Positions 9,686 through 38,294 of a stretch of 64,000 bases of DNA are shown piece by piece. The notes beneath the pieces are model-generated. The model was not told where the DNA came from and searched no databases. It saw nothing but the letters and a program-made list of their open reading frames with translations. Positions within the stretch are counted from its first letter, which is position 1. Each line of letters opens with the position of its first letter. Made by a program: the position numbers and the translations under genes. The stretch comes from a virus, in the IMG/VR virus record IMGVR_UViG_3300025120_000001, positions 32,001 through 96,000 of that record; one strand, given 5' to 3'.

Positions 9686-9717
9686 AAAATTGGGGAGTGA
9701 TATTACTCCCCTTTTTT
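9686..9717. terminator. Intrinsic terminator between convergent units (probably bidirectional)
   Basis: GGGGAGT-gatatt-ACTCCCC followed by T6 on the plus strand; A-rich on the other side. Confidence 0.85.
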
Positions 9718-12700
9718 ATTTAATAAAGAAGTTCTTCATATCAAGATAATTCTGCCATTTTTTAATACTATATAAAATAGGAATAGTATCCTGCCATTGT
9801 TTGGCTAATTTAAGCATTCCTTTTCTTCTACCTCTTTGGTATACTACTGCAGAGTTTTCGTAAAATGAATTTCTATCTTGTGTAATAGCATAGAAAGGAG
9901 TTTCTATTAATGAAAACATAGCTTCCCCAAGCTCACCCATTGTTCTTGTAGATGCAATTGGAGATTTTATCATTTGCATTTGTTCTTTAGATCCTAAAAA
10001 AGGGACAAATAGTATAAGTTCTTTTAATGTTCTGTCTGCTTGATACATTAAAATGTTTTCCATTCTCTTCTCAAGATCTCCTTCATCTCCATCATCCGCC
10101 CACATACTTTGCATTACTTCTTTTATGAGAACTGTTAGCAGCATGATTCCTATTTCACCCATAGACCTATAAAAGCCTTGCAATCTATTAAGAGCTCTTT
10201 CGTTGTCTTGGTAATCTCCATTTTCTAAATAGCCATTATCTTCTAAGAATCCGGCTGCATATTCATTAAATTTAAAATTACCTTTAGCAAGCTGTCTTCT
10301 AGTATGACCCATGAAGCCCCACCAAGATTTATACCTACCTTCCATCCAACCTAGATTTTCATCATAGTATTCTTTATCAAATCTTGCTCTCATTGCTGGA
10401 GCAATCCATTTGTGAAACTGAGCTGCAAGTTTACCAACAGTACTGGATTGCATAACCATTCTATCTTCATAGGCATAGTTACCGTGAATTTGTTTGTTTA
10501 CTTCACGCATTTGATTTCTAAGTTGATATCTAAACTGATCATTGTACTCACCCATATCTCTAAGAACTTCAGGATTGCCTTCTTCATTTAAGTTTTTATT
10601 ATCAACTTTAACTACAGTCCAATTACCTTCTTTCATTTTTAGATCATGAGAATCAGCACTAAAATCATGAGCATCATACAAAGATAATATCTCACCTGTA
10701 TCTTCATTTCTAACCATTGTATCTATCACCATGGCCATACCTACTTTAGTTTGAACATTCCACTCAGCGGCATCTTGTAAAGTATAACCCCATTCCATAA
10801 ATCTTTTAAAGTAAGACTTCCCTACTCTATCAATATCAGATCCTGACTCTCGTATTTCAGCATCACTATCCATCATTCTATATAGTTCTACAAAAGCTTC
10901 ATATTTACTATTCGCTTGCTCAGGGTCATAGCCACCTTTAGGTCCACCTAGACCTTTTGCAGATGAGGCTAATCTTTTAATCATGTCTGGTATACCTCTC
11001 TTGTTATACTCTAAAGATGATCTTAAGTAAGCATCCTTAGAATAAAATCTACCACCTATTGCTTCTATGTTATCATTGATACGGCCCAGGACGTAATTAT
11101 TAAAGTTACCAAATGGGTTAAATGCAACATAAGATAAAGATGATAACTGTATAAGACCATCTGAAACTTTTTCAAAAAAGCCTTTAGTCATTTGATCGTT
11201 GTCATAGTAAACCATATTCATCCATTTCTTAGCTCTTCTAAGGATATTAGAGTCGGTTCCTTTTATTGTTGCCTTTTCTTCAAAGCCTAATTTACTTTTA
11301 ACAACTTGTTTGATTTTTCCATCAGGAGTTTTATATTGACGTCTTTCAATTTGCTTTAGCATTGCTTTCATTGTATCATCAACAGATCCCATTGTTTCAT
11401 AATGTTCTGCCATTGATGCAAACTTGAGCAATGCATTTCCCATATCTTTATTTAACTCTCCTTTGGCCGGTTTACTTTCTTCAGCCATTCTTAAACCTTT
11501 AAGCTCAGCTATTTGCTTCTTATACGGATCAAGTTTTATTTTACCATCTGATCTATTTTGATTAAGCTCTTCAATTTTTGCATCAATTCCTTTTAAGACT
11601 TCATCATTTCTAGTTGAACCTGTATAAAATATTGGCATACTATCTACAATTTGGCCCTTCTCATCTGCAAATACAGTTCTCTGCTGCATTGTAGTTGTAA
11701 AAAGATTTTTAATACCACGGGTTGTTTTAGCAAACAGTTTAGTTCCTAAATTTGGTTTTGCTTTTAGATCTTGAAAGATTTTACCTCTCATTACAGGAAC
11801 TTTACCAAGCATTTGACCTCGTTGACTTGCTGGTATTTTATTTAAAAGATCATCCTCAAATAATTTTTTAAACATTAAATAAAACTCTTTTTTAGCTTGG
11901 CCAAGTGCTGTATCATCATTCATGATTGCTTCATACTTCTCACTTCTCAAACTATTACTAATCACATTTCCGGCATCATCTCTAAGAGATTGTTCTACTC
12001 TTACTTCTCTAAATTCAGGTCTTGGGTATGGTGATACATTATATATGGTTTTAACTTCTCCTGTAAATTGACCATTCTTACCTCTTTTAGCAACCGTTTT
12101 GCCATCTTGTTCTAAGCTTGTTCTAAAGTATTTAGCCATAAATCTATCATACGCTCTATCACTTATATCACTTTTTCTTTTCCAATAACCGTGCTTACCT
12201 CCAGCAACAAAGTATTGATACTTGGATCTTTCAGCTTTGAACTCTTCTGTATATTTATGATAACTTCCATTTGCGGGTTGATCATTTAAGCCTATAGTTT
12301 CAGCTCTAAAAAAATCTGCAAACTTTTCCTTAGCTTCAGCTAACTTAATGTTATACTCTATATCTTCTAAACTTGCCGAAGCTCTATCTGATATATCTCT
12401 AAATTCTTTTGGTTGTCCAGTAGAATCATACAAAGCATCTCTTAATTCTTGCATTCTAGCATAATACTGAGGTCCTATTTCCTGAACATACATTCCTGTA
12501 AACTCACCATCTTTGTCAAACTCTAACATAAAATCATACAAATCTTGAGGATCTTTGATACCTGCAAGTTTTTGTAATTTAGAAGCTGAACTCTGTATTA
12601 TTCTTTCCCTATCTTGTATCTTATCAAGAAGTTCTTGTTTCTTAGATTTATAAATTTTATCCATCAATGCTAACAAAGTATCTTTGGATGTAGCAAGATC

Positions 12701-15496
12701 CCTTGTTTGTAATTCTATTACGTCTATGTCTTCCCCAAACTTCATTAAATCATCTAACATATCTTCAGTAAAGTTTCTAGATGAAGTATTTTTAACAATG
12801 GTTCTTACATAATTTTCAATAGCGTTATCTATAATACCGGGAGTATAGTTATCAAAACTGCCAACACCTACTAAATCATTTGCCTGTATTTGTAGATTTA
12901 AAACTAAACTCTTTTGAGTTGCGTTTAATTCTGCAGAATCTTGAAGTTTATATAAACCCTGGAATGTTTCCATGAATCCATCAAAATTTAACACATATGA
13001 TATATATTCTGGTTTAGCAAAGTTTTTTGGATCTTCTACGTATGTTTTAAATTCATTTATTTGTCTAAGAGCATCGCGCATTAAACTGCTAAATATTCTA
13101 GATCTAGCACTTGGTCCTGATCCTAATGCAATATTAATAGCACTAATTGAATTAAGAATTTGCTCTTCAAGTTGGGCTGTAGTTTGATGTCTTCCTAAAT
13201 AAACTTGTTTATTAAGTTGATTTAAAGCTTCTTGCTTTTTGATAAGCCCAATTTGATAAGTTCTTAATGCCTGAGTTATAATAGAAAACTCAGGTGCAAC
13301 TTCAATATTTTCAGGCTGACGCTCTTCACCATCTAGAAGTTCTTCTAAAGTAGCTTCTTGAATAGACTCTGGAGATTGATTCATTGTTTCATCAATTTCT
13401 TCTTTTAAAGTCTGATCAATATTAAGTGGAATAAGCGCATCTACATAAGGTTGATTTTGACCAGGAGGATGTGTCTGTTCTCCTTCATAAGTAAACTCAC
13501 CTGTAAAACTTTGATTTTCAGCTTTTCCTTTTATACCTACTTTTACATGTATAGTACTAACAGCATCTTTATCAATGGACATGGTGTATCCCATGTTCTG
13601 CAACATTCTTTTATACATGTTTACCTGAAGACTATGCTTTTGTCTTTTTGATAATTTGCCTTTTCCGTTTTTACCTTTCTTTAATAAACCTTTTTCAACA
13701 AGCTCACTATTTTCTTCTACATCCCACTGTTTATCATACATCAGTTTTTTGCCCGCAATACCTTGATAATCATTAACTCCATCTTTAGAAGTTTTAAGAT
13801 CTACTATTTTTAATGTACCATCTGGTTTCACAATTAATAAATCTATTGTACCTGCTGTACCTGTAGCTTCATCGTAAACTGTTACCTGCGGTATTGCAAC
13901 ACTACCATCTCTTAATAACCCGGAGTCTTTATTATACAAGGCATCGTCTATATCATCAAATGCTTGACCTGCTTGTTCTTCTGTAAGAATTACTTGCCCT
14001 CCAACTTCTTCTGCATCTTGCTTAACTCTTTCAAAAGCTTCTTGTTTAGTTAAGCCTGCTGCTAATGCTTCTGTAATGCTATCAAAATTATTACCAAGGG
14101 CCATATTAATTGCATACTTCTCATCCATCTCTGCTTGCTTATCCGGACTCTTCTTTCCGCCAAATCTTTCAGTAGTGCTTTTCCAAGATCTCTCTATATC
14201 ATTTATGTCTTTATATGTATGTGTCTTTTGGTCTAGGACCAGCATTGGACTTTTTCTATTATATGCAGAAGCAGCAAGTATGCCTATATCATTTGGCGAA
14301 TGTACAGCCCCATGAAACAGTTGTCTTACTATTTCTTTTTGTACAGCATTTCCTGAGTTTGTTGCAGAATCATATGCTATCTTTGCGCCACTTGTAAGGT
14401 TATATCTAACTTTTCTATCAGCAACCCTATCTATTTTAAATTCAATACCTGATGTATTCAATAGTCTTGCTATACCACTTAGCGTAGCATTCTGTGATAT
14501 TGATCTAGCAGAAAATGCTTTTCCTGTTAAGTATTCAGATAAATTTTTAATTATATCCATAAACCAATTCAGAAATTCTTTTACTGCAGTCTTGAATGGT
14601 CTAGTTTCATTTTCAGTAAACTCTTTATTAAAGTGTCTAGATAATGCCTGGGTTACTAATTCAAGTTGTCTATGCTTTTCTGAAAATCCTCTACGGTTAT
14701 TATATGCATCATTTATTTCTTGAGATAACTCAGGAAAACTTTTCCTTGCCTCTTTTAATAATTTACCAAATAGTTCGTTATTATCTATATAAACACTATC
14801 TATAAAAGGATGGAGTATTTCTTCTATTGCTACATCATCTGTAACACGTCCTTCTATTAAAACAGCTTTGCCGTCTACGTAAAAAGATCTTATATCTTTA
14901 AATGGGACCTTTGATTTTTGTTCCATTGGTAAATCATCATATGCTTTTTTAGCATCTGCTGGGGATAACATAACAACAGAAAGTTGAGGAAACATTCTCA
15001 TCAAATGCCTCACTACTTCCCTAGAATGTGGTGTATTAAAATTCCTTGCTGACGGTATTACATCGCTTGGTGTAAATACATTTCGTTCTATATCTATAAC
15101 TAGACCTTTACCTTTACTCCTTCTAGATATGGCTTCTTTAGGTATATGATTTACTCTTAGGTAATTGTATAACCTATCTAAATTATACTTTCTTATAGCA
15201 GGATCATACGTTCTATTACGTGATGACACAACATAATAGTCTCCCTTAAACTTACTTATTATACCCAATCTAGATAAGTTTGCATATAATGCTCCTGTAA
15301 ATTCTTGAGTCTTTAAGTTATTGTAAACTTTCTGATCTTTTTTATACTGCATTACTTCAGACACTGTAGGTAAAGCATCCGTACTGTTTGCTTTTTGCCA
15401 TTTATTCATTAAGTAATTTGCTTCAATTGGTGAACCCAATGCTTCCGCAACATTTTTAAATTCAGCAGTACTTCTATTTATACATGTTTGTGCCAT
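9716..15496 (-). CDS. Giant ejected virion protein (about 1926 aa, start MAQTC) with degenerate zincin and PD-(D/E)XK nuclease-like domains
   Basis: TAATG coupling at 15494-15498; EEILH; GTIDLL...IVDLKTS...QVNMY; position immediately after the RNAP gene as in crAss-like phages. Confidence 0.8.
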   Translation of the reverse strand: MAQTCINRSTAEFKNVAEALGSPIEANYLMNKWQKANSTDALPTVSEVMQYKKDQKVYNNLKTQEFTGALYANLSRLGIISKFKGDYYVVSSRNRTYDPAIRKYNLDRLYNYLRVNHIPKEAISRRSKGKGLVIDIERNVFTPSDVIPSARNFNTPHSREVVRHLMRMFPQLSVVMLSPADAKKAYDDLPMEQKSKVPFKDIRSFYVDGKAVLIEGRVTDDVAIEEILHPFIDSVYIDNNELFGKLLKEARKSFPELSQEINDAYNNRRGFSEKHRQLELVTQALSRHFNKEFTENETRPFKTAVKEFLNWFMDIIKNLSEYLTGKAFSARSISQNATLSGIARLLNTSGIEFKIDRVADRKVRYNLTSGAKIAYDSATNSGNAVQKEIVRQLFHGAVHSPNDIGILAASAYNRKSPMLVLDQKTHTYKDINDIERSWKSTTERFGGKKSPDKQAEMDEKYAINMALGNNFDSITEALAAGLTKQEAFERVKQDAEEVGGQVILTEEQAGQAFDDIDDALYNKDSGLLRDGSVAIPQVTVYDEATGTAGTIDLLIVKPDGTLKIVDLKTSKDGVNDYQGIAGKKLMYDKQWDVEENSELVEKGLLKKGKNGKGKLSKRQKHSLQVNMYKRMLQNMGYTMSIDKDAVSTIHVKVGIKGKAENQSFTGEFTYEGEQTHPPGQNQPYVDALIPLNIDQTLKEEIDETMNQSPESIQEATLEELLDGEERQPENIEVAPEFSIITQALRTYQIGLIKKQEALNQLNKQVYLGRHQTTAQLEEQILNSISAINIALGSGPSARSRIFSSLMRDALRQINEFKTYVEDPKNFAKPEYISYVLNFDGFMETFQGLYKLQDSAELNATQKSLVLNLQIQANDLVGVGSFDNYTPGIIDNAIENYVRTIVKNTSSRNFTEDMLDDLMKFGEDIDVIELQTRDLATSKDTLLALMDKIYKSKKQELLDKIQDRERIIQSSASKLQKLAGIKDPQDLYDFMLEFDKDGEFTGMYVQEIGPQYYARMQELRDALYDSTGQPKEFRDISDRASASLEDIEYNIKLAEAKEKFADFFRAETIGLNDQPANGSYHKYTEEFKAERSKYQYFVAGGKHGYWKRKSDISDRAYDRFMAKYFRTSLEQDGKTVAKRGKNGQFTGEVKTIYNVSPYPRPEFREVRVEQSLRDDAGNVISNSLRSEKYEAIMNDDTALGQAKKEFYLMFKKLFEDDLLNKIPASQRGQMLGKVPVMRGKIFQDLKAKPNLGTKLFAKTTRGIKNLFTTTMQQRTVFADEKGQIVDSMPIFYTGSTRNDEVLKGIDAKIEELNQNRSDGKIKLDPYKKQIAELKGLRMAEESKPAKGELNKDMGNALLKFASMAEHYETMGSVDDTMKAMLKQIERRQYKTPDGKIKQVVKSKLGFEEKATIKGTDSNILRRAKKWMNMVYYDNDQMTKGFFEKVSDGLIQLSSLSYVAFNPFGNFNNYVLGRINDNIEAIGGRFYSKDAYLRSSLEYNKRGIPDMIKRLASSAKGLGGPKGGYDPEQANSKYEAFVELYRMMDSDAEIRESGSDIDRVGKSYFKRFMEWGYTLQDAAEWNVQTKVGMAMVIDTMVRNEDTGEILSLYDAHDFSADSHDLKMKEGNWTVVKVDNKNLNEEGNPEVLRDMGEYNDQFRYQLRNQMREVNKQIHGNYAYEDRMVMQSSTVGKLAAQFHKWIAPAMRARFDKEYYDENLGWMEGRYKSWWGFMGHTRRQLAKGNFKFNEYAAGFLEDNGYLENGDYQDNERALNRLQGFYRSMGEIGIMLLTVLIKEVMQSMWADDGDEGDLEKRMENILMYQADRTLKELILFVPFLGSKEQMQMIKSPIASTRTMGELGEAMFSLIETPFYAITQDRNSFYENSAVVYQRGRRKGMLKLAKQWQDTIPILYSIKKWQNYLDMKNFFIK

Positions 15497-18400
15497 TAAA
15501 AACAAGATTTTAGTTGTTCAATAAATTCTTCCATTGTACTTGATGTTTTTTCAAACTCTTTCATTAGAGCATCTATACTACTATAGTCTCTGTTAAAAGC
15601 TTCACCAACTTTCTTCAAGCTCATCAAGTTGCCCATTGATAGTGTTGATACATATGCTTCAAGCTTTTCTTTATTATCAATTGTATCAAGGCCTTCATTT
15701 GCATTTTCTCCAGACTCTACAGGATTACCATCTGAATCAATGCTAAAGGTATCTAAATCTTCCGCATCATCCAAGGCATCTGCTAAATCATTCTCAGTAG
15801 TTACTTCATTGCCATCATTATCTATTGAAAATGAATCCGCTTCCTCTGACTCATTGACTTGATCAGCAATGCTTGTACCGCCAATCTTTATATCTTTTCC
15901 GTCTATTTCAATATCAGAAGATTCATTGGATATTTTTTCTTGATAATTTTGTATTATATCTTTAGCTACAGGTGTATTTAACCAACCAGCTTTATCAAGC
16001 TTATCTTTAAATATAAAATTATCATATGCTTTATCTAACATTGCATCTAAAGTTGAATCTGTTCCATATTCATATTCTACTGCATCATATACTACACTAG
16101 GATCTCTACTTGATCTTCCTGAACCATCATCTGAACTATCTTCTCCTGGGTTAGCCTCTTTAACTGTTTCTTTTACTGAGTTATTTGTAGGTCTTTCTCC
16201 AAATATAAAACCAACAGGAGTTTGCGCAACTGATCCCATGATATCAACTTCTATGTATTCAGCAAAAGTACCTGTGGCAATATCTTGAGATAATCCTTCT
16301 CCTATATTACCATACTCTGGACCAGCATGTCTAACTAATTGGAAATATCTTGTTTGACCATCTACCATGAATCCCATAACTTGCGGAAACTCAGCAATAG
16401 ATCTCTCTCCTTTTCCTTCATAAACAGTTCTTAGCTTAAATCCTTTCTTTACTTGCGTTACATTTGATCCATATTTCTTTCCTTTATCTTTAGCTATTTT
16501 AGCAAACTTTCTAGTTTCAAACTCATCATTCTTTTCAAACTTTGGTCTAGCTGAAATACCCTTATATAAATCTACTGTGATAGTAGCTCTGTCAAATTGA
16601 TCATTTAAATATAAAGCTTGATTCTTTGCTTTTCTATTTACTTCTTTTCCTTCTTTCTTTACTTGTTTATCTGTAAGTCCAACAGCTTGGTATCCAAAAT
16701 TGTCTTCCATTTTTTGAAGAAGGTCATCGTAAAGCTCTACACTAAATTCCTGGAGTCCCATTAATTCAGCATTATCTATTTCATTCTGAATCATTACACC
16801 TCCACTAAAGCTATCTATATTTTGCTTTATCTTTTCAATCTGTTGTTGTATCTCATTAGATGCTGTATTTATTTCAGCACCCGTGTAGTAGCTTTCTTTA
16901 TTATTAGATAAATCTTTTTTAATAACTATGCTGATAACATTATTAGCACCCCTAACAGCTTTACTATTTGAGGTACCTGTTCCGGATTCATTATCAAATA
17001 TAACAAATAGTTTATCCGGGTTGCTTTCTACATAGTCTAAAGTAAATGGTTTTCTAGCTTGATTAACTAATGACTTACCGTTAAATACAGCACTAGAAGA
17101 CATTGACTTTTTCTTTAAAAGTTTTGCCGTTTTAGGATGTAATCCATATTCTCTTATAAAGTTTAATTTTAGATCTCTAAATGACATTCCAAAGTTGGCC
17201 ATCATTTGAGCATCATCCATTGCAGCAAATGCTTGAGATGTACTTGGTAAAGTAGACATATAATCAGCAAACATTTCCGGGTTTATGGAAGCTATTATAC
17301 TTCTATACACAGGTTGCAATCCATCTTTCACTATCATATAGTTTAAGACTTTCATTGATAACGCTCTAGTTAATGGATCCGCATATAACTCTTGAAATCC
17401 ATTTTGCACATCCAGCTTTTGAGAGTCATTTAAAGGAGTAAGTGTATTTGCAGTAAGCATGCTAATACCAGTCTTGTTACCTTCAGACGTAGCAGATTCA
17501 GGTCTTATAAACCCATCTAAAAAGAAGTTGTACTTGTCTCCGTTCAATTCTTTTATTTCGTCATATGTATCTACAATATCTTTAGTTCCCTCTTCTGGAT
17601 ATAATAAAGTGTTTGTTGGGATTCCTAAAACAGACATTGGATTATTATTTAAATAATTTAAATAACCTTGCAATGTTATATAAGAAAGCATATCATTATT
17701 TATTACCGCTCTCTCATCTTTGGTAAATCTTTTATAGTTTGTGTCAAGTGATGAAAATATATTTTTAAAACCAGCGCTTTCATCTAAAAATACTTTTGGT
17801 AATATGCTGCCTACAAATTCATCATGTATATCTAACATTCCTCTTTGCCATCTATCTGCGGAAAATACAGGTCTTAAATCAAATATAGGCATCTCATTTG
17901 GTGGTAACATATCAAATTCAGCATCTGTTAAATCTATACCAAGGTCTTCTCTAGCTTTAGAAACTTTGTATACATCGTTTGTATCTTTACCAAATCCTTT
18001 TGCTAAATTAAGGAGATCCCCCATTGGTCTTAAGAAACCTGAAACATCAAATGCTTTTACAAATTGATCTAGAATGGCATAATCTCTAAGTACTTGTTCT
18101 CTAGTTATAGCTTCAACTCCATTGTCGGCAGCTCTATCAACTTTATCTTCAAGTTCTTCTTCTGATTTATATTTCAGCATAGGATCCTGAGATCCATCAA
18201 TTAAAGAAGCTTGACTAACACCAGTAGCTCCAAAATCTTCTTCTGTTGCTAAATCATAAGTTGCAGCCGCTGCTTTAAGACTATCCATCTTATCTTCAAT
18301 GAATTCCTTAACATCAAATTCAAAAGCCGGAGCTCTTTTTTCTAGTTGATACGCTTCTCTTATTGTTGGATGATTCATCATTGCTACAGATGTTCTAATA

Positions 18401-21400
18401 GGTACACCCATTGCACTCATTGTTGTAACAATAGCTAATGCATTTCTACTAAGACCAAGTTTAGCGGCAAGTCTTTCTTTAGCGTTATCCGTCATTGCCG
18501 TAATTAACGCAGATATAATATATTGTTTTCTTCTACCTAACGTACCATCTTCTTTTAACTCTTTAGATCTATCTACTGTTTTTCCATTTACCTTGTCTTC
18601 ATTAAATAGACCATTGTAAACTTGACCTCCAATATTTAGTTCATAGCCTCCACCTGGAATCATTTTAATGCCTTCTTCTTGAATAAGACTTAGATATAAG
18701 TTTGGTAGTACCGCAGCTCCAATTGATTTTGCACCCTCTTTATTGTTTGCAAAACCTTTCCATTTACCAAATAAATTATTAGCATCAATACCATCCTCAC
18801 TTAACATCTCAGCTAGCTGAGGAACTTCTCCACTTATCCAGCTCCAGGTATCTTTTAATATTTCCATATCAGCAGGCTCATAAGAAATAGCAGATTGATC
18901 ACCGTCTCTTGTAGTATTTCCAGCATGTCCCATCATAGAATATTTGAAATCTAATATCTCATTATTATATCCTGATGAAAATGGATATCTACCTGTTTTT
19001 TTATGATAGCTTTTAAAAGCTTTCTCATTCATTGGCAAGTTTAGCATTCTCAATGCTTTTATAGCATTAGGAGAAAACCCTAATTTTCTTGCTGCTTCTA
19101 GATCTTTATCTGATAGTGAATTTTTTGTTCTATCATTTGCTTTTGCCGCAGCTTCAGCAAAAGTACTTCCTGATTTTTGAACAGCTTTATTAACCCATTT
19201 AAGATAACTTTCAAAGTCATTAGTGTATTCCTTAATAACCTTTTGCATTTTAGGTTTTGTATAAGGCTTACCTTTAACTCTAAGTTTATCTTTTATTATT
19301 GAACGGCTTGGTTGTGTACCTCTTATATAGATTCTTTTATTATCACCTCTCTTGTGAGGAATTTCATAATAAGTAGCTCCATCTTTAGTTGTACCAAGAG
19401 CTTCTTGTATTTCTCCAAAGTTTTTACCTCTACCCCCGTCTTTAATTAAGTTTAATTGTTCTTGAGCTTGTGCTAGATTATCTACAACCCAAATATCAAC
19501 AGGATCTCCCGTAGCATCAACTTCTGTTTTATGCTCATACATATCAACAACAACATCATAAATTTTAGTTTTTTCTTTTGTTGCTTCTAATGTTGTATAG
19601 CCATCCTTCATTTGGATGTACAACTTATCAATATCAAAATCGGCCCCTGACACCTCAACCAGTTCTCTTGCTGAAACAATAGTTGAACCATAAAATACCG
19701 GTAGAAAATCTACAACTTTTATATTTACTGTTGAATGATTATCCTGAGATGGAATACGTATACCAAACATTTTAGATAAAACTTCAGGTATTGATTTACT
19801 AGGAACTTGATCATACATTGTATATGCATCCTTTGAATGAACCGGCATCATAGATTCTGTATACTTTATACCTGTATACTCGCCATCTTTATACTCTTTC
19901 ATATCAGGTCTAAGTCTATCTTTTACTATAATAAACTCACCCTCCTTCATATTTTTGAGTCTTTCATTAAGACTATCAAACTTATCTTGATTGTCATCAG
20001 ATAAATCTAAAACTTCATTTCCGTATTTCTGAACATCATCTATAGAATAATTATTCTGAAAATCATCAGTCCTTATAATCTCTTGTCTATCTATATAAGA
20101 TTTTCCGTCTACTTGTTCTGTGCTATATATCTTTCTATATTGCTTGAACCCATAATCAGAAAGCAATGCTGCTGCTGTACCTGGTAGCTTTTCAGACATT
20201 ACGCCTTTACTAAAATAGCTTAAGAATAGTTGTTTAAACTTTTGGGCTACTATAGGTGTATCCTGAGCAAAATCAAAATTTGGATTACCTTCTTCATCAA
20301 AGCTGAAGAACTCCAATAACTGAGCAGATGAAGCGCTTGCCTTTAATGCTGTTTGTGCATACTTAAGGAATGATATAAGATCCGGACTAAGTTTTTTAGC
20401 GTCTATAGATTTATGCAACTCATCCATTGCATAGTCAGATTCCATATCAAAATTAAGATTTCTTTTATCTAAATACTTCTGTTTAAGTCTTGAATCTACA
20501 GCTCTATTATAAGCTAGCTTAATAGCGCCAATAGTTGTAAGCTCACCATTAAGTATAACTTCTGTATTATCACTTTGCTCTCCTGTTATAAGAGTTTTGA
20601 TTTGAGTAGGATCAATGATCTCAGATTTATTTGATGGATTTAATACTTGAAGACCCATGTAATTAGCATCCAATTCCATAACTTGATCATCACCAAAACT
20701 TTCATCTGTTTCACTAGTTGATTCAAAGTCTAATCTTCTAGCCATGTAGCTACCTGTATTTGCAGGGCCCAATAACTTAGATTCTTTTTGAGTTATTGTA
20801 TTACCTGAACCAACAAGAGCATCAATTGGTGTTATGTTTTTCTTCATCATCTTTAGTGCAGATAATGGTGCAACCATTGCTACAGTATCTATACCTTTAT
20901 CTAACTGATCTTGCTCATATTGTTCCATCTTAACCCTCATATTATGAAGATCTTCTCTACCGGGCTTAGCTACCCAGTTACCGTTTTTATCTTTATAAGA
21001 AGTTAATGCTTTAGTAAGAGGTACAACTGAAAATTTATCAAAGACTTTACCATCACCATAAACAAGCTTTTTAGAGTTAAGCATTTCTTGTTTCTTAACG
21101 GCTCCTGCTGCACCAAATATTTCATCAACAGATATATCTGCGCCATCTTCTATTTTATTTAAAAGAGCTGATTGTGTTTCTGTTAATTTACCAAACCCAA
21201 ACCACATGTATCTAAATGCTTTAAGACTCATCCAGTTTTGGGCATCTGCTTGTTCTATATCTTCACCTGTATGTATTGATGTACCTATCGGATCTGTTGT
21301 AGCAAACATTGATATTTTTTGTAATGGATTTAGAATACCATGTTGAGGTGATGCAATTCTACTAGCCGCACTATAGTATGCGGCATTTTGCATCTTAGCT

Positions 21401-24400
21401 CTTTTAACTGCATCAACGGCATCTTTAAGAGTTAAAGCCTGATCTCCTAAAAGAACATCATTCATTGAAGAAGTATTAATCCAATCATTAATGAATATCT
21501 GTTTAGTATTGTAAGTCCTGTTTCCAGTTAAATTTAACTTTTCATTAGCTCTTTGAAACTCCGCTTCACTACCTGTAGAGTTTTCATTTCTTTGAACACC
21601 TTGACTTAAAAACTTTGGTAACTCTAATATTGGTTTACCATTTTCATCTATTCTGTAAAACTCACTATTAATATCTCTGTTAAATTGAACAAACTCTTGA
21701 TCAATTCTTGAACGCATATATGCTCTAAGTTGTTTTTTGTCTTTACCTATTTTACTGAGGGCGCTATCTAACGTTAACACTTCCCTTTGATCTGCAGGTA
21801 ATGCTGCATTTTCTCTTATTAATTTTTCTAATTCAGCCGCATAATTAAAGGTTCTAACATTTAATAAATCTCGTATAGCTGTAGCTATATCATAATCTTC
21901 TTGTTCAGCTGCTTGCTTCTCTCTTTCTACTAATTGTTCATTATCTAATTCTAAAATGTTTTCATCAACAAGTTCATATACATAAAATTCTTTATTACCT
22001 TCAATAAAGTCTTTCATCTTGTCTGATTCTACCCAGTATGTATTATTACCAACTGTTGCTTCTTTTATGTGAGTTGTTGTTTTATTATCAGATATAGCGT
22101 CTCCTAATTTATCATATATGTTTGTCATTGTCAGCTGACTAACTTTTCTAGATCCTACTAGTTTTACTCTGTTAAACGTTGCTTTATCTCCTTTCTTCTT
22201 TACAAACTTCTTTTTCTTTTTTATTTCCTTGACTTCACCTATTGACATTTCTAGGTTAGTTGATTCACCTTCAGCAAAGAACCCCATAGATGTTGCCCCT
22301 TGTTCATCTTTGATAAATATTTTTTGAGTTCCAGCTCTAAGTCTAGCAACGGTTGCTTCAGTATCTAGCAATCTTCCAGTTTCAAGCTGCGTAGAAGGGC
22401 TATCTTTTGGACTTAATACAAGCTTGTTGTTAGTAAATTTAAAAGCTCTATTGTATCCAATAATCTTACCGCTCTTGTCTCTTATTTCTACTTGTCTATT
22501 CTGACCATCTTTAGTAGCATTATACCCAGGATGAAGCTCTTCAGTTCTGGTAGCAGGATCTAACTCTCTTTGAATCCTTGCAAATTCCCCTTCAATATTT
22601 TTTTCATATGCATCTAATGCTGCATCAGTAACTTCAGCATCACCTTGAGCATTAGTCTTAACCGCTTGTATGATAGGTAATTCAACCATATCCCCTGTGT
22701 TAGATGCTTCTATTACTCTTAGTAATACAGGAGCCAATGCTATCATTTCATCTTGACCTTCTGGGATAACCCCTCTTTTAATTTTACCGGACTTAGGATT
22801 AACCCCTGCCGTATAAGCACTTAATAAAGCATGTAAAATTTGTTTAGGGTTAAAGTCACCGTAGTTTACACCTTCTTCATTTCTATCATATTTTTCAACA
22901 ACCCCACCATCTCCGTCTACTTCAATTCCTCTACTAGCCTTACTACCTGCTATTCTTGTTACTTTCAATAAACCTTCTCTAGACATTTGCCTAAATGCCG
23001 GGTCATTTAATAAATAATTACTAGCAAGGTATGGATCTTTGTCAATGAGATCTTGAAGAGCCTTAGCGTTATTATCTACATCATTTAATTGAGCTATTCT
23101 TTTTAAATGGAATGTGGGTAATTGATGAGCATAAACTAAATCTCCAGCTGGGTTTTTAAAGACCGAAGAACCAACTGTTTCATCAAACATTGAGTTACCT
23201 AAACCAAGTTTACGCAATCTATTGTAAACACCTTCTTCTCCAGTTTGAGACATTAGATTTTCATTTGCATCAAATTGTTCTTTCATGTAAACAATATCAT
23301 CCCACTCAATGCTTATTACATCTGTTCTAGAATTTAAAATTTGTTGTTGCCATTTTGTTGGGCCTAATCTTTTCTTTCCTTTAGCTGCTGTTTCTTTTTG
23401 CAACTTAGTAGGTTGTACTATATTACCTGCAATGCTATATTGTATGTAATCAGGGTGTAGCTTAATACCCATAGTTTTAGATAACACCTCTGAAACTTTT
23501 ACAGCAACTTCAGCTAATTTTTTATTTGATATATAACCAATTGGATCTTTTGGATTTAAGTAATCTAATAATACATCAAGCTGGTCTGATGCGTCATCTT
23601 TCAATGCCGGATCTGATAAATACAATCTTCTTCTATGTTTATATTCAGTTTCCCATTTTTCAACTTGAGTATGTGCATCATCTCTATTAGCAGCAGAGTA
23701 AGCTAAAGTTTGACCGTCTGCTGTATTAGTGTGTAAGAATAAATAATCAACTTTAAAGTTTTCAAAACCTTTAAGTAGCGCCTGAAATAATAAATTGTCA
23801 TTAGTTTCTCCTGGAATTATTCCATTTTCTAATTGATCTTCCCATACTAAACCTAAATCATTAAATAGTTTTTCTTGAACTGCTTTAGTTTGAGGATTAT
23901 TTTGAGAGAACATATAGATTTGCTGTAATATTCTTACGGGATCTGATGTACCACTAGCAGCTTTTAAGAATCCTGAATATGCAGAAGCAAAATCTACAGG
24001 AATAATAATTTTTATTCTATCATCCGGATCCGCCTCTGGGTTAATATATTCATTGCCAAATTCATCTTTTTCAGATAGTGTAGTTGTAGCTATATACTTT
24101 CTTAGGAATGATGATAATGATCTAGTACCTCCTACTTGAGACGCATCTTTTCCATACTGCTCAGTAGTTCTAAGACCATACTCCATTTCGTTCTCCATGT
24201 CAAGATCATCCATCATCTCTAACTTAATGTCATATAGCTCAAGTTCTTGAACAACTGAATCTACTATATCTTTTCTAAAGTTTTCAAATGCATTTGTAAT
24301 ATTTGACAAGTTTAACAATTGCTGCGTTGATACATTAGCATACTGAGCATTATCAATATTGTATAAAGCTTTAAATGCATCTATAGATTCCTCAACTGTA

Positions 24401-27400
24401 TCTACAATGTTAAAATTAGGATCTTCATTAAACATTTCTAAATCAACAACCCTTGCTGTTATAGCTGAAACTATTCCTCTACCTTGTTTATTAGGTATTG
24501 TTTTATATACTTCTTTACCTTTTGCTGGCGTTGATGAACTATATCTAAGCAGTTTACTTGCATCCAGCGTAATACCCATAGTAGCTGAATCTGTAAAAGG
24601 ATTAGATACTGCTTGACTATTCTTAAACTTTCCTGCACTGATATCTTTATATAAAGCTTGAAGTTGTGTAGCGTTATACTTTCCAAGAACGTTTCTGATC
24701 CACTCAAGTATTTTATTAAATAAAGACTTGATGAAAGAATCTGTTTTTGTTTTAGCTGGACTTTGTTTGAATATTTCAAACTGATCTGCCATATACTCTT
24801 CCAAGTACTCTTTCTCAAGACTTTCTTGACTCCAGTTTCTATATTTATTGATATCACCATTTCTTAATTTTTCTAGCTCTACTTTTAAGCTCTTACCTTC
24901 TGATCTTAGTTTAGATAATACTTCTGTTTTGGCCAGCTTGTAGTAAACATTTTGTTGATCTGAATTTAATAACATTCTAAATACAGCATGGAATGCTTCA
25001 TGGTATGCGTACTTAGATGTTGCACCTACGTATAACTTACCGTTTATTTTTTCATTACCTGCTATTCTACTCATAGCCATAACAAAAGCACCTACTCTTT
25101 CTCCTCCAGATTTCATATTGTCTCCTAGAGTTCTTATATCTTCTATAGAAATAAAGTCTGGGAGATTAGATGAAGCCCAAGATAAAAATTCATCTATATG
25201 TTTTAGATCTTCAAGATTTAAATTGTCTGATATTTTGTTTGCTGTATTACCTAAATCAGATTCTACTTTAGCTAATTGTTTTTGAAGTTTTATAATTTCT
25301 TTATCACTCAATAGCTTTTTCATGATCTCGCTATTCTTTAGTTTACCTACTGAGTCTTTTCTTATTTTTACTTGTCTTACTTCTATCTTAGCTAGTAAGT
25401 TATTTCTTTCTGCTATTAAAGCCGCTCTATCCTTTTGAACAGCGCCTGTATCTGAAGTAGCTGCATTAGATGTAGGATTATCTACATTGTACTTTGTTTT
25501 AGATAGCAATCTAATAGATGTTCCCATTGGAGAACCTAGTATCTCCAACTCTCTAATTGTTAAAGCCTTTTCTCCTTGTTCAGAAAGTTTTTGCGCTAAG
25601 TATTCTCTTTGATCTTTACTAAGACCCTGAAAGTCATTTGATTTTTGTTTATCATATTCTTCTTGACTTAGCTCTTCAATACTTGCAATCTCAGCAGCTG
25701 GGCCATCCGAAGCAGTTGGACCATCTTCAGTTTCAGCTTCTTCACTTGGACTAGTGTTACCATCAGCGCTTGTTGATCTACCTGTGGTAGTCATAGATAT
25801 TATAGCTGTATTTTTTATGTCTGAAACTTGTACCCCTTTAATGTTTGCTATTAATTTAGAAGCCCCTCTTACATTTGGAGATATTTGTGTAGTAACAGAC
25901 TGCTCAATTTCTTCTGTAGTAACATTCTTATCAAATGAAATTTTAAATGCATCCTTTTTAAGCTGACCATTTTTTTGAAGATTTTCAAAGAATACTTTTT
26001 TCTTTGCAAATGCTTTATCAGTAACATCTATATTACTTATGTAATCATTATAGTTAGTTATTAAAGCTTCTATAAATTTTTCTTTATTATCAAACTCAGC
26101 ATACTCTTGCACTTGTTCAGCTGACATTATAATATTATGAGACTGCTTTAATTTTCTATCATAAGCTCTAATAAATACTGAACCATTAGCTCCTACATTA
26201 ACTTCAAATGTATAGCCAGGTTTACTCGCCATATAAAATCCAGGTGAATCCTGTACTTCTCCAGCATTAACTTCTTGATTAAATATAGAATTAAACTTTA
26301 GATCTTTAGTTTGCTTTGTCTTCTTACCTTTCTTTACCTCTACCTCTTGTACATTTTCTTTTAATGTTTCCGCAGATCTTTTTATTAAAGTCTCCGCAAG
26401 TGCTGCCGTTCCTTCTGTACTCAAAGAGTCTGACTTGATTGGAAAATATGAATATACACCAGAAGAACTTTTTACAACCATCACATATCTAGAAGCATTA
26501 GATGCACCGGAATAAAGATTTGGATTTTGAGCATTCATTTCCGCTATAATCTTTTTCTTTACTTTAGATCCTTCTCCTCTTTCAGCATTAGTAATAAATC
26601 TAGTTGATACAGTACCGTCCTTACCTTTTTTGTTTTCTAAAACTACTGTTACACCATCAACACCTTGAACATTAAGATCTAATACCGGTTTATCTTTCTT
26701 GTCAAACACTAGTTCACCAGGTGTAGTAAAAAAGTTTACACCACCAATATCTTCTAAAGTTGTTACTAGAGATTCTGAGTCTCCCATTTTTTCTGCAATA
26801 GAGTTCATTATTTGAAACTGTATTGCAAAGTTTCTTTGTATATCGGAAGCTGCAGTTTCAGCAGGTCCTGAATAGTTAAACAAATCTTTTATTTGATCTT
26901 TAGTTATAGACAAAGGATTAATAGCCTGGCCATTTGCATCTGTTAATATCACATCCCCATTTGGTATATACCCAACCATTCCAGTTGCTTTTCCTTCCGC
27001 ATCCATAGCAATAGGTATCCCAGCTTCTTCAAGTTTTGCATTTATTCTTTTTGATGTTGAGCTTTTTAATTTTAATCCAATGTTATATGGTGACTTAGTT
27101 GTCCTAATAAATGGATTTTTTTCTTTATCCTCAAACTTAAGATAGCCCCCTTCTCTATCAAGTATTGCACCACCTTGTTCGTTTTTAGTAACTATAACTT
27201 CTAGCTCATTGAGTTCTTTCTCAGTTAGGTTTTTAAGTATAAAGTCATATCTTCTTCTACCTATCTCTAGAACTTCTTGGTAATTAGTTGTTGCATCGTT
27301 TCTATGTGGTATAGCAGCTGTTGCTTCATCCACTCTTAACTTACTTGCATTTGCTGGTAATTTTGCTTTACCTGCATTAAATACTTCAGGGGTAAACCTT

Positions 27401-30400
27401 TTTAAGAAGTCTCCTTCTTTTAGTCTTGTTGCTTTTTTAATACGTTGTTTAGGATCTAAAGTATAAGCCTTGCCTTCTTCTAGAACCAATAAGTTTCCAT
27501 ACTTTTCTACAGTTGGTTTAGTTGATACAACAACATACCATTTTTTAGTTTTTGAGTCTTGAATTCTATCTCCATAGTTTAATGTCTGACCATCAAACTC
27601 AAATGAATCCATTGTAGGTACATAGTTAGATAGTTTAGCTCTAGCACTTTCAGCTTTTCCTTTGCTTGTAAATCCTTCTGCTAATATTGGATCTAAACCA
27701 GCAGCCTCATACATAGCCTCATCTAGAATATTCCCGGCTTTATCAACTAATACATAAAATGAAGTAGCTTCTTCTGTTTCTGGATTGATAACTAATTTTT
27801 CTAAAATATCTATAGTAGCGTTAGATGAATCTTTACCTTTAGTTTTATCATCCTCTTCAGTTACACCTTGTTCATCCTTTAATTCTGGTAAAAATATCTT
27901 TAATGATATTCCAGTTCTACCGGATGATGCCTCTTTTAATACTTCACCAACAAGATCATTTGTTCTTTGAAGTGACAACCATTCCTTAAATCCTTTATCT
28001 GAATTAAAGACTTCCATTTTAGCATCTCCATCTAGACCTTGTAGAGTTTGAAACCAAACTTTCTTTAATCCATTGTAGCCTCTCATAATATCTTTTGATA
28101 AAGACTCCTCTAAGAATTGCTCCCATGTAGGAATTTTTTTAGCTCCTAGTTTCAGCAACATTCCTCTTTTTTCTTGATATACCCTTTTTAAAACTTCATC
28201 AAGATATGGCGATTCACCTGCTGTTTTACCTACCATTTTAGAATCTGGTCCTTCTATACCAGCATCATCCAATATAGAGCTTACACTTTGATCTCTTTTA
28301 ACCGGATCTTGAGCTGACTCTTTTGCTTCTTCAGCTCTTGTTTCAGCGTCTTTTTTTAATATGTCAGATGCAGTTTGTCTATATACAGAAATAGCAGCTT
28401 GAACTTTTTCATATAATACGGGATCATCTATTTGATTAACCGGGCCGTCTTGATTAAAGAAGTTTGTTAAATATTTAGGATCTCCTGTAGCTCCAAACAA
28501 AAGCATATCTTCTTGACCTAAATATACACCTACATTAGCAAATTGATTTAAAAGAACATTTATCTCTTCTTTGTTTATAAATCTTTCAATAGACTCTCTG
28601 AATAGGCTCATTTTATTTTTATAAGCAAATTGAAAGTATAACTCAGATCTTTTTAGCATGTCATTTAAGTACTCGGGATCAGTCATAACCCTAAGCGCTT
28701 TATCATACATAAATTGTCTTGCATTCAAATGATCTGAATCTATAATAAGATCAATGACATCTTTAATCATTTCATTATTAACAAATGCTTTTTTATCCTT
28801 ACCTATATATTCTAAATACTTTACAATAGCCGGTGTCAGTTTAGTCTGAAGACTTCTTCTATCAAAGCCTCCGTCTTTTTTCTGACGTTTAGGATCATAT
28901 AGTATTGCTGAAATATCTTCAAGAAGCTTTAGTTTTTTAGCTCTTCTATTTTTTTCTCTCTTTGCACCAGGTTGATCTAATACTTCTACCTCAGTTCTAA
29001 GAGCAGCCATCTCTTCCATCATGGCTTCTTTTGTAGTAAGTACAGTTAAATCATTTGCAGCTAGTTCTTTAATAATAGGGTGAGATGCTAACTGATCATA
29101 TATTTTTTCAGTTCTTTCAGCAGCTCTTTGGAAGCCATCTTTTGTAAATAGGTATAAATCTCTAGCATGTCTTTGAGCTAAAAACTTTAATGTTTCTTTT
29201 TCATGTTGTTTAGACCCCGGTTCATACAAACTTGGATCTGCAGTAATGGTAAGTTTATCTTTATTTTCATTAAAGTCTTTTTCCATTTGCTCCAATCTCC
29301 CCAAATTTTCTTGGATTTGAGATCTTAACTTTCCTTCTTTAGCTCTAGCTTTTTCAGAAGGGAATGCTTCTGCTAATTCTTGATCGGTTAACTCTAAATA
29401 ATCTTGAAGTTGCTCTTTAAAAAATTCTTGTTTACCTGTTTCAAATAAAGTTTTTAAATTTTGGAACTCTGCCATATCACGAGTATCCATAAAATTCATA
29501 ATGTCCCCTTCAGATTGAGCTTGCTCCATTGCTTCACTCGCTTGCTTTTGCACAATGAAATTCATTTGATCTGGATTCATCAATGGATTAGACGGATCCA
29601 TGGCCATAGAATCTCCATGCTTATTCATGTAAGAAACAAGATTATCTAAAGTTGTCTTTTTGTTTGCTTTATGTTTATCAAATGCGGCTTTATCTGTACC
29701 TATTGTATACAGTGTAGGTATACCTTGGAATATTGCCTTCTGAGGTAAATTAATTACACCACCCATAAAGAAACCTGACATAAATGTCTCTAAACCTTGA
29801 GAGCCCATTTGAGCACCTAAACCAGATGAAAGGGATGATGAGAATAAAGCTGAACCGCCAGCCATAGGATCAAATTGTATTGCAGTATAATAATCTTTAA
29901 CACCTGCAGATACAGCTTCTTGATAAACTTCTTGCAAACCTTCTGAAATATTTGCAGCCGAATATCTTAAAGCACCATAAGCAGCCATAGTAGCCCCACC
30001 TCTTAAACCATCTGATTTTAGTTTTTTAGCTATAAACTTCCAATTTAGAAAGCTGTCTTCAACACCCTCATAGATACCTTTTTGGACTTGTCTTTTACCT
30101 GCATTAGCTCCTTCTTTTACAACTTTTGTTGCAGCCTTACCTCTTACAATTCTACCAAAGCCTGAATCTATTGATTCTTTAGCTATTTGAGAAAAGCTTC
30201 TTTTAAATCCACCAAAAGCATTTCCAAGTAACAACTGATTAGACAAGTAAATTACAGGAGCATTCCACATTGTTGTTGTGAATGCGGCTGACTTAGCATC
30301 TTGTTCTACCTTTGCCATTTGCTCTGTACTAAGTTCTTCTCCTAATCCAGCTAGCTTATTCTTTTGTCTTTGTATTAAATAGTTCTTTTGCCATTGCTCT

Positions 30401-31613: not shown

Positions 31614-34600
31614 TTATGAGTTTTCTTCCACTTGCTCTGGCGTAAGTTTGCCGAACATGAAGTTAAAATTATCTCCTTCTTTTGGATCAGTTATTTTATC
31701 TGGATTAGTTTTTTTCCACTTATCCCTTTGACTTTTATTCTGAGATCCTATTTTTTGTAATTCATATAAATACTTTCTCATATAATAATCTAATTCCTGT
31801 CTTGATCCTTGACCGATTGCAATGCCTTCATCATTAACTAATTGCTTAGTAAACTGAGCAGCATCATATTCTCCAGTATCACCGTTGAATTGTAGTATTT
31901 GATAGTTCATATTATAACCACCTTCAGTACCTTCTGTTATAGAGAATGAGCCACCGGCAGGAACAGCTCTTTGAAAACTAGCATCTTCACTACTTGCTAT
32001 AGAAGAAGCAACATATGAAAAATTAAATTCACCATGTTTTCTAGGATTGTTATCCTCCTTTTTAGGAATAATGAAACTAAGTGTATTACCTGTAAAAGTT
32101 TCAGGTATCATTTTACCTTTTCCTCTCATGCCATCCAAATACTCATCGCTAAACGTTAATGTATATCCTGCGTATTTATGATCTAGATTTTTACCTTCTG
32201 CAGTCCAGCTTGGGAAATATTTAATTGTAGCTATTGGATAATCACCTTGAGCTTTGCTTTCTGTAGTTCTTCTCTTTGTCATATCCATTATGTATTGGTT
32301 GTATAACTTTTTACCAATGTTATAATCTATATTGTCTTTTCCTGTATCCTTATCCTTAATAACATCTTTATCATCCCAGTATGTACTACCATCTGATTTG
32401 CTAATTTCATTAAATCCATAATCTGCAAACATGATAGTCATCTCAGGATCATTCTTTACTTGCCGGTTTAATGTGTTTAATTGTTCAGCCGCAGAATCTG
32501 ATATAGATAACGGATCTATTAAAACTTCATAAGTAGGATTGTTTCCTATTTCACCAGGATTCTGGTCAGCTCCTGCAATACCTCTCATACCTTGTTTAAT
32601 ATCATATGTTTTAAATATATCACCAAACTCTGCAAAGTCACCCTTTTCTGTTGTGACTTCTTGCGTTGCTTCTAGCTTTCCTCTAATTGCATAGTCATTT
32701 AATTCATACATAGATTTCATGAACGCAGCAGCTTGTTTATCAGATCTCGCTCTATCATTTTGCATTGCGCCATTATACTCAATAGTCGTAATTGTTCTTT
32801 CTGGAGCATAACTTCCACTACCAACTGTACTACTATATCTATTACTTTCACTGGCGCTTTCTCCAAGATTTGCCATTCTATTAGATGCATCTGACCATGA
32901 TTGTTCATGCTCATCACCTGACCAAAAACTAGTATCATCAAATCCATCTACATCAACGCCCTCTACAGAAAGAGCTGCGCCACCTCCATCTTGAATCCAT
33001 TTCCAATATGCATCATTATATGATTTATCTGTATGTCTTCTGCTTACACCATCTCCATCTTTGTATATCATAGTTGGCATACCAGCATTTACAGCCTTTG
33101 CCATTAAAGATTTAAACTCATCACCACTTTCAAGATCAAATGATGAGTTTACAGCTTTCTTAATATTGTAATCTGTAACCTCATATAAATTTGATACATG
33201 TTTGTCAAGTTGCTTTGATTGATTATCAAGAGCATCATAACCATTTTGAATAGCAGCAAACTCTGCAATTGGATCTTTGCTATTAAACAATAAAGGGCTG
33301 TTATCAGCAAAGGTTTCTTGATTTACATTCTTGGCTTGAACCTTAATTAAATCACCCATTCTTTTAAATTCTGATTCAAATGCTGTACTATACTTACTTT
33401 TCATTTGATTGAATCCTTCATTATCTTCACTACGCAAAAGATATTTTTTGAGTTCTGTTTTTAATGCGGATGCTGACATAGTTCCAATGCCATCCATTGT
33501 TATTAAACCACTACCCCCATTTGTTAAACCTTGTTTTCTTGCAAGTACATCAATAGTCCAATCAATTTCGTTATTGGTTATTTTGTTTTGCATGTCCAAA
33601 GCTATCTTTTCTTGATTCTCAATATGATCACCATTTATAGTTGCGTTTCCGTCATCATCTATATTTTGAGCGGTTACTGTATTTGCATCAGTTGTAATTT
33701 CAGTTCCTTCTAAATCTAGTTTATCTTGTCCAGTAGCTTCATATTCTAATTGAGCCTTTAATGCAATGTTTTGTTTGTCAAAAATATCTTTAGCCTGCAT
33801 TTGCTTCATCTTATTGCTATGCTGGGCAGCAATTTTTTGCATATCATATTTTTGTCTCTTAGCTAAAACAGCATATTCATTAGCTTCTAGTTTAGACATC
33901 ATACCTTTTTTAGAATAGTCTATAGCCGCAGACTGAAGATCTGTTTCCATTCCCATATTCATCATCAAGCTATATGCTCTATTTAAAAGTGACTTTGTAT
34001 TACCGGCATTGTATTCACCGTTTGTTTTAAAGTCTTTTTCAGATTGAGGCTGATTGTCAAAAAGCTTATCTATTTCCGCCAGTCTTTCTCTAACTGCAGA
34101 TAAATCTGATTTACTTTCATTAGATGCTTTTTCTTCAGGACTTCCTTTTATAATAGGATCTTGTTTATTTGATTGGTTCCAAGCTTCGTTTTTTTGTTGA
34201 GCTTGTTTTTTCTTTTCTGCTAATGCTGCTTGTCTTTTTTCTATCTCTGCTTCAACTTCCTGAATCTTATCAGTTGCCCAAACATTCTGACCTTGATCTA
34301 TACTAGCAAACTTACCCTCATCTACACCAGTCTGAGCAAAGTTCCGTGATTTAACATATGCATCTGCATGATATGCACCTATCACCATAGGATCATCCTT
34401 TAATGTTTTTTGTACAAGAGCTAAAGCTTCATTAGTTATTAAGTCTCCGTTCTTTCTATGAATCATCCACTCACCATTCTCAGATATTGTAGTAACTACA
34501 TCTGTCTCTAAACCTGATTCATTAAGAACTTGTAAAGCCTTTTCATATAAATTAGCATTAGGTGTATATGTTGGAGTAGCCATAGTTAACGCTGCATCTT

Positions 34601-38293: not shown

Positions 38294-38294
38294 A

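Follow-up and report, generated by a model that had tools for sequence, protein, structure and literature searches.

Two cysteines at the junction of two giant genes

The window analysed here is a stretch of 64,000 nucleotides (nt), positions 32,001 to 96,000 of the IMG/VR record IMGVR_UViG_3300025120_000001, the complete record of a marine crAss-like phage, 112,134 bp long with terminal repeats. Our subject is a junction between two giant genes on its minus strand, which encode a predicted virion RNA polymerase (RNAP) fusion protein of 5366 amino acids (aa) and an associated protein of 1926 aa, and the two cysteines that face each other across this junction. The genes and features concerned are listed below in window coordinates; gp numbers refer to the crassvirus crAss001.

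9716..15496, minus strand: 1926-aa protein, gp49-like RNAP-associated cargo (blastp, profile)
15482..15484, minus strand: TGT codon of Cys5, the only cysteine of the 1926-aa protein
15494..15498, minus strand: TAATG, stop/start overlap of the 5366-aa and 1926-aa genes
15502..15504, minus strand: TGT codon of Cys5365, the only cysteine of the 5366-aa protein
15496..31596, minus strand: 5366-aa virion RNAP fusion protein, gp47-like plus gp50-like (blastp, tblastn, motifs)
31614..35069, minus strand: 1151-aa cysteine-free protein upstream of the 5366-aa gene, sharing the cysteine depletion and carrying no junction cysteine

Counting in the translations, we found that the 5366-aa protein contains a single cysteine at the penultimate residue 5365 (C-terminus ..QLKSCF*), the 1926-aa protein a single cysteine at residue 5 (N-terminus MAQTC) and the 1151-aa protein none. 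A preliminary description of this DNA had given the same positions and the same counts (0, 1 and 1 in the three proteins), and the extra internal cysteines that it had named as a sign against its proposal of a covalent link do not occur in the window proteins. The coupling of the two genes by TAATG, also described there, was found again, though this overlap is not kept in relatives. The depletion is pronounced: cysteine makes up 1.36% of the remaining open reading frames (ORFs) of the same phage (332/24,395 residues) and 0.024% of the three-protein set, in whose 8,443 residues about 115 cysteines would be expected and two were found (Poisson P ~8e-47). For two cysteines placed randomly, the chance that both fall at most 5 residues from the facing termini is ~2e-6.

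The preliminary description had counted the 1151-aa protein among the ejected proteins. This protein is indeed cysteine-depleted, but it has no junction cysteine and is not part of any chain; any linked chain here therefore consists of two proteins (7,292 residues), not three. Searches with the junction DNA among deposited phages, for near as well as distant DNA similarity, gave no match.

Identity of the proteins

The 5366-aa protein carries a DFDID catalytic motif at residue 3986:

19627..19641, minus strand: DFDID catalytic motif of a two-barrel RNAP; the flanking 500 aa match crassvirus RNAP genes

By tblastn, this catalytic region matched the polymerase genes of many crassviruses, including g066 of phi14:2, and residues 3904-3996 matched crAss001 gp50 (blastp E 1e-13). 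Residues 2198-2334 weakly matched residues 2156-2300 of crAss001 gp47, near the gp47 C-terminus (blastp E 2e-4), and the sequence HEAFH at residue 2199 marks the HExxH region of this gp47-like part. The 1926-aa protein matched crAss001 gp49 (blastp E 8e-26; E 3e-49 with a profile of our alignment A1). When the giant proteins were searched against PHROGs, Pfam and PDB sequences, the sole match was DUF7831 (Pfam E 4.8e-10) at residues 4849-4931 of the 5366-aa protein (16804-17052, minus strand), a domain that is also precomputed on all ten full-length homologs of this protein. Pfam and PHROG searches with the 1151-aa protein gave no match.

The blastp and tblastn matches, together with the motifs, thus identify the window at the sequence level as carrying a crassvirus polymerase cargo block, in which the gp47-like and gp50-like parts are fused and the gp49-like protein is separate. 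The crAss001 homologs gp47, gp49 and gp50 are virion cargo by mass spectrometry (PMC10172136), and the phi14:2 homologs g067, g066 and g065 are virion proteins by the same method (bioRxiv 10.1101/2020.03.07.982082). From these virion homologs we infer that the window proteins are also packaged and ejected.

Conservation of the cysteine pair among marine relatives

Using the family alignment we fetched 80 IMG/VR loci and analysed their raw DNA; 74 of them include the junction. At all 74 junctions (36-88% identity) the C-terminus of the upstream protein has a cysteine at a distance of 2-5 residues, and a single cysteine, again in 74/74, occupies residue 3-5 of the downstream protein. Taken together, the upstream proteins contribute 192,710 residues with 76 cysteines and the downstream proteins 142,313 residues with 74, nearly all of these cysteines being terminal. 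Both TGT and TGC are in use as terminal cysteine codons. Between the two genes lie -1 to +15 nt, or 134 nt with a small inserted ORF in locus L051. As the spacing varies and the TAATG overlap is not kept, the conserved signal is the residue and not a nucleotide motif. Over the last 450 aa of the upstream protein the mean column identity is ~17%, and the cysteine is among six columns conserved at 90% or more.

Searches at the protein level gave a similar picture. Of ten full-length homologs of the 5366-aa protein, nine contain one cysteine and no more, positioned 2-3 residues from the end. For the 1926-aa protein we obtained 120 homologs at 37-100% identity. A cysteine is present at residue 3-5 in 118 of these, nearly always as the sole one; the other two lack the first ~60 residues of the family, apparently through truncated gene calls. 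We then used alignment A3, which covers the N-terminal 400 aa of the 1926-aa family (mean column identity 47%), as a profile against 1.84 billion representative proteins and obtained 630 matches at E<=1e-3. Within this set, 207 of 212 family members (at least 1000 aa long; 50% identity or less) have a cysteine at residue 3-7, most often at residue 4 (124 proteins), otherwise at residue 3 (62) or residue 5 (17), and in 171 of the 212 full-length relatives it is the only cysteine. Four of the five exceptions are truncated; the fifth is considered below. Alignments A1 and A3 both show cysteine without exception in the column of Cys5.

A cysteine at both ends was observed in the representative proteins P0214, P0227, P0259, P0262, P0264 and P0265. 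The 'middle' protein P0264 was looked up in IMG/VR and was not found there; among relatives of the 1926-aa protein, we searched for longer (fused) ones and found none. Overall, the sequence comparisons show the cysteine pattern to be under strong selection.

Cysteine pairs mark polypeptide breaks across Crassvirales

We compared the polymerase block in 17 reference genomes, namely 16 crassviruses of four families and this window. Following the crAss001 order gp47, gp50, gp49, all 21 breaks within the block (21/21) have a cysteine on both sides, and 0/33 outer termini of the block have one; the 17 genomes are not phylogenetically independent, which applies to both counts. At the 21 junctions the C-terminal cysteine lies 1-9 residues from the end and the N-terminal cysteine at residue 3-6. 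The preliminary description had predicted paired terminal cysteines at each split between giant genes, and this prediction held at the 74 marine loci as well as at the 21 junctions in 17 genomes.

The most complete form of the pattern is that of three separate proteins. In phi14:2, the single cysteine of g067 (1797 aa) is its last residue; the crystallised polymerase g066 (2180 aa) contains one at residue 3 and another at residue 2179; and g065 (1421 aa) has one, at residue 3, so that each of the four cysteines in the 5,398 aa of the block faces a junction. In crAss001, where the gp47 gene lies on the opposite strand, the only cysteine of gp47 is found 3 residues from its end, that of gp49 is Cys5, and gp50 (2412 aa) contains three, namely Cys5, Cys2404 and an internal one. 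The three-protein arrangement with its cysteine pairs is also present in DAC15 and IAS virus. One pair each was found in genomes with two proteins. In p-crAssphage, crAss002, cr107_1, cr3_1, cr8_1, cr127_1 and the unverified gut scaffold L096, gp47 is separate and gp50 is fused to gp49, and in cr118_1, cr4_1, cr50_1, cr52_1, cr115_1 and this window, gp47 is fused to gp50 and gp49 is separate. At the gp47/gp50 fusion boundary of the window lineage there is no cysteine, as predicted beforehand for genes that have fused. We looked for a closely spaced cysteine pair near the estimated fusion point of the fused gut proteins and found none. The cysteine pattern is very strongly conserved and strictly associated with polypeptide breaks.

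Several records needed attention when gene ends were read. In the IAS virus record, N runs inside the gp50-like gene (L095:16400-16620) break the ORF; when read through, the protein starts with MSLYC. The annotated start of crAss002 gp33 (L086:8187-8282) is probably 32 codons too far upstream: its close relative cr107_1 has a stop within the extra stretch and starts with MSCTPS, with the conserved cysteine at residue 3. The polymerase-block genes of cr4_1, cr52_1 and cr115_1 (L088, L098 and L099, respectively) contain 18-80 in-frame stops under table 11. These stops fit stop-codon reassignment, which is known in some Suoliviridae, and the terminal cysteine rule still holds there.

A new break in one locus

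In L081, a locus of a marine relative, the upstream gene is interrupted near its end by an additional ORF, in which Pfam recognises a YkuD L,D-transpeptidase domain (E 1.6e-5):

L081:7708-9534, plus strand: inserted 609-aa YkuD ORF
L081:9539-9982, plus strand: split-off C-terminal 148 aa as a separate ORF

The 148-aa ORF begins with MSC and ends in the usual ..QKCHIK*, and the truncated upstream protein has gained its only cysteine. On this evidence the locus appears to be a natural experiment, in which a new break came with a new cysteine on both sides. Extra splits in L012, L035 and L065 were rejected as frameshift or assembly errors: homology to intact relatives runs on across the frames, and there are no cysteines at these places.

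Predicted structure of the two ends

Four regions were delimited at the two ends, three of them by AlphaFold2 (AF2) models:

14297..15496, minus strand: first 400 aa of the 1926-aa protein, a conserved domain on which the C-terminal module may dock (alignment A3)
15467..15496, minus strand: predicted unstructured N-terminal tail (residues 1-10) with Cys5 (AF2)
15499..15702, minus strand: predicted C-terminal helical module of the 5366-aa protein, ~68 aa, with Cys5365 (AF2)
15703..15840, minus strand: predicted disordered linker, ~45 aa, ahead of the C-terminal module (AF2)

For residues 1-400 of the 1926-aa protein the mean predicted local distance difference test score (pLDDT) was 79. Residues 1-10, which include Cys5, were modelled as coil, with pLDDT below 50 at residues 1-3, and the first helix spans residues 11-20. 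The last 450 aa of the 5366-aa protein gave a mean pLDDT of 69. Here, model residues 337-382 (pLDDT 32-48) are predicted to be disordered and model residues 383-450 form four helices (pLDDT ~90), the last of which ends with Cys5365. A complex prediction with the last 270 aa of the 5366-aa protein and the first 400 aa of the 1926-aa protein, based on separate alignments, scored 0.00 and was weighed neither for nor against binding.

Comparison of the models with VIA-align showed that residues 154-349 of the 1926-aa protein (14450-15035, minus strand) are weakly zincin-like (Z ~6), with matches to PPEP-2/3 and to the N-terminal domain of anthrax lethal factor (root-mean-square deviation 4.3-4.6 over ~140 residues). 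This region has invariant H164, E225, E226 and H229, that is EExxH instead of HExxH, and may represent a degenerate or variant metalloprotease domain. The C-terminal module gave weak matches to generic small helical bundles only (Z ~5). A Foldseek search of the N-terminal domain against PDB gave no significant match, and the cyanophage A4 chain 9k3a (see below) was absent among the VIA-align matches listed.

A probable disulfide tether between the two proteins

We read the two cysteines as the halves of a conserved inter-protein tether, probably a disulfide. Our favoured explanation is a heterotypic head-to-tail disulfide, formed in the particle and replacing a peptide bond, to which we assign a probability of roughly 0.6. 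By inference, this bond would form in this phage, would be a disulfide and would serve co-packaging or co-ejection; the chemistry is plausible, given that phage A4 has a disulfide with exactly this geometry.

In such a scheme, the C-terminal helical module, held by its flexible linker and with Cys5365 at its tip, would dock on the gp49-like protein, whose short and floppy N-terminal tail would offer Cys5. The two thiols would form a disulfide after the particle has left the reducing cytoplasm, so that the polymerase block in the virion would be one covalent unit of ~7,300 residues, the link doing the job of the peptide bond where the same parts are fused in other lineages. With both cysteines only a few residues from the chain ends, the joined product would be nearly linear and would therefore fit unfolding and passage through the tail. 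The host cytoplasm would reduce the bond afterwards and free the parts; this release is not essential, as fused lineages show. Of all steps in the scheme, the threading of one chain through the tail has the weakest support, and we regard it as doubtful. We are similarly tentative about an order-wide version, in which the polymerase block of Crassvirales would be one redox-gated thread of 5,400-7,300 residues, disulfides would be interchangeable with peptide bonds, the near-terminal position of the cysteines would be dictated by unfolded passage through the tail, cytoplasmic reduction would release the subunits and cyanopodophages would have come to the same solution independently or by remote ancestry.

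A number of points weigh against the disulfide tether. Assembly takes place in a reducing cytoplasm, and the habitat of gut crassviruses is anoxic, so that oxidation may be slow or depend on handling. With one cysteine per partner, copies could also share a metal bridge. There are also departures from the pattern itself: the gp49-like protein P0242 (2437 aa), with ~400 extra N-terminal residues, has no cysteine and is the sole complete rule-breaker; the new upstream cysteine of L081 sits 62 residues from the end, and the C-terminal cysteine of crAss001 gp50 sits 9 residues from it, so that neither placement is strictly terminal; and fused gut proteins contain several internal cysteines, their fusion point being only an estimate. 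Finally, A4 is an analogy and not a homolog, since the searches described below point to a pair that is unrelated or very remotely related.

Alternative explanations

If the thiolates, maybe from two copies of each protein, shared a zinc or other ion that joins C- to N-terminus, the conservation and the break/fusion rule would fit equally well. Such metal clasps have precedents in the Rad50 zinc hook and the CD4-Lck zinc clasp. A clasp could arise in the reducing cytoplasm, its independence from oxidants suits phages of the anoxic gut, and several cargo copies have been estimated per crAss001 virion (PMC10172136). However, each terminus offers a single cysteine, no conserved His, Asp or second Cys was seen beside it within the motifs, and the sole solved analogue, A4, has a disulfide and not a metal site; we thus consider a metal clasp rather unlikely. 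The partner of a thiol is not readable from sequence, and with multiple protein copies per virion plausible, the links could instead be homotypic, giving dimers joined C-terminus to C-terminus or N-terminus to N-terminus and no head-to-tail chain. This would leave unexplained why cysteines occur on both sides of every break, at 0/33 outer ends, and are lost on fusion; the A4 bond, moreover, is heterotypic, and homotypic linkage seems to us very improbable.

Quite improbable, too, is that the two residues have independent roles, the N-terminal cysteine acting as a cysteine-switch or nucleophile for the zincin-like domain and the C-terminal one serving packaging, redox sensing or another purpose. 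The weak zincin-like match of residues 154-349 (Z ~6), with its invariant E225, E226 and H229, speaks for such a role, but an N-terminal cysteine is also found on gp50-type polymerases with a different N-terminal domain (phi14:2 g066, crAss001 gp50 and p-crAssphage gp44), the gp47-like HExxH domain is kept in the window without a nearby cysteine, and the strict pairing with breaks is not predicted. We give next to no credence to the absence of any function, with cysteines tolerated at chain ends or with the junction TGTTTTTAATG being a -1 frameshift site that constrains the codons. In the window, T TTT TAA with the next gene in the -1 frame does allow P-site slippage, but the cysteine is retained in 74/74 loci and 207/212 family members while the surrounding residues vary. 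A fusion by -1 frameshifting at T TTT TAA was rejected as well: the T-run and overlap occur only in the window and its closest relative, and other loci have stops, spacers of 2-15 nt and varied sequence. The raw-DNA analysis of the 74 loci argues against a gene-calling artefact.

Significance and other large proteins of the window

Crassviruses are the most abundant human gut phages. Their polymerase proteins amount to more than 6,000 residues that have to be packed and injected, and this cargo is reportedly not resolved in the crAss001 structure. A conserved covalent tether, if true, would account for the arrival of the polymerase parts in one cell in equal amounts, for the free exchange of gene fusions and splits in the block, and for the retention of one cysteine in otherwise cysteine-free proteins. 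It also suggests an annotation rule, in which a cysteine pair indicates a true gene break and an absent pair a fusion or an assembly frameshift. Applied here, the rule distinguished one real split from three that are frameshift artefacts and drew attention to the likely mis-annotated start in crAss002.

Thioredoxin-like proteins are encoded near the polymerase block in some gut crassviruses (p-crAssphage gp39 and gp37, L085; cr8_1 gp04, L097); a search for thioredoxin (PF00085) in this marine phage gave no match.

Other large late proteins of the window are cysteine-poor, with their cysteines clustered:

35129-38317, minus strand: large late protein, cysteine-poor
38295-42662, minus strand: large late protein, cysteine-poor
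42726-45293, minus strand: large late protein, cysteine-poor

Of these, the 1062-aa ORF has eight cysteines in residues 713-759 with zinc-site-like CxxC/CxC spacing, the 1455-aa protein has two CxxxxC pairs (405/410 and 1180/1185), and the 855-aa protein has C213/C220.

Comparison with known systems

The preliminary description knew of no such linker. A precedent is however available: the pre-ejectosome of cyanopodophage A4 (Anabaena phage A-4L), solved by cryo-electron microscopy (cryo-EM), has a disulfide that joins Cys1715 of gp27 to Cys5 of gp26 (Hou et al., PNAS 2025, PMC12002296; PDB 9k3a). We checked the A-4L genome and found that Cys1715, three residues from the end (..NPCQF*), is the only cysteine of gp27 (1717 aa) and that Cys5 (MSKHC) is the only one of gp26 (1114 aa), which is chain A of PDB 9k3a. 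Like the window pair, gp27 and gp26 are products of adjacent co-directional genes and otherwise free of cysteine. They are internal virion proteins, which the window pair is predicted to be, and the window likewise has its only upstream cysteine near the C-terminus and its only downstream cysteine at about residue 5. In A4 the docking site of the C-terminal helix lies in the next protein, which is largely helical (PMC12002296). For the window, single-chain AF2 models predict that the C-terminal end is a helical module behind a disordered linker and that the N-terminal tail is exposed.

Blastp, tblastn and profile hidden Markov models from alignments A1 and A2 detected no significant homology of the window proteins to A4 gp26 or gp27. 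The window pair is therefore filed as working like the A4 pair, with A4 as a precedent by analogy. The systems also differ in that the A4 proteins are not polymerases and have a single link, described merely as a stabilising contact, and the A4 paper holds no comparative rule, multi-link chain or fusion equivalence (PMC12002296). A disulfide tether of this kind has so far been seen by cryo-EM only in this unrelated cyanophage; for the window pair the bond is predicted from sequence.

N4-like phages offer another comparison. Their ejection proteins (N4 gp50; DEV gp71-gp73) contain cysteine far below the level of the proteome, which has been linked to passage through the periplasm (PMC11445570); the preliminary description had relied on this lack of cysteine in N4-type injected proteins, and it is established. 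Similarly to the window, a giant virion RNA polymerase and companion ejection proteins are depleted in cysteine. In contrast, N4-type proteins have essentially no cysteine and the polymerase is a single polypeptide, whereas absence of conserved cysteine does not describe the window, which has one strictly conserved cysteine at each facing terminus.

The closest comparison is with other Crassvirales. In crAss001 virions, which contain the cargo gp47, gp49 and gp50 with several copies of each protein estimated per virion, intermolecular disulfides occur in the tail and portal vertex (PMC10172136). That paper discusses disulfides only for tail and portal-vertex proteins and does not apply the word 'cysteine' to the cargo, the phi14:2 preprint (bioRxiv 10.1101/2020.03.07.982082) does not mention cysteine, and we found no published description of the cysteine-pair pattern for Crassvirales in the literature. 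The polymerase blocks of crAss001 (gp47/gp50/gp49) and phi14:2 (g067/g066/g065) are homologous to the window proteins and follow the same cysteine rule; in the window the gp47-like and gp50-like parts are fused into 5366 aa, so that only one cysteine pair is left.

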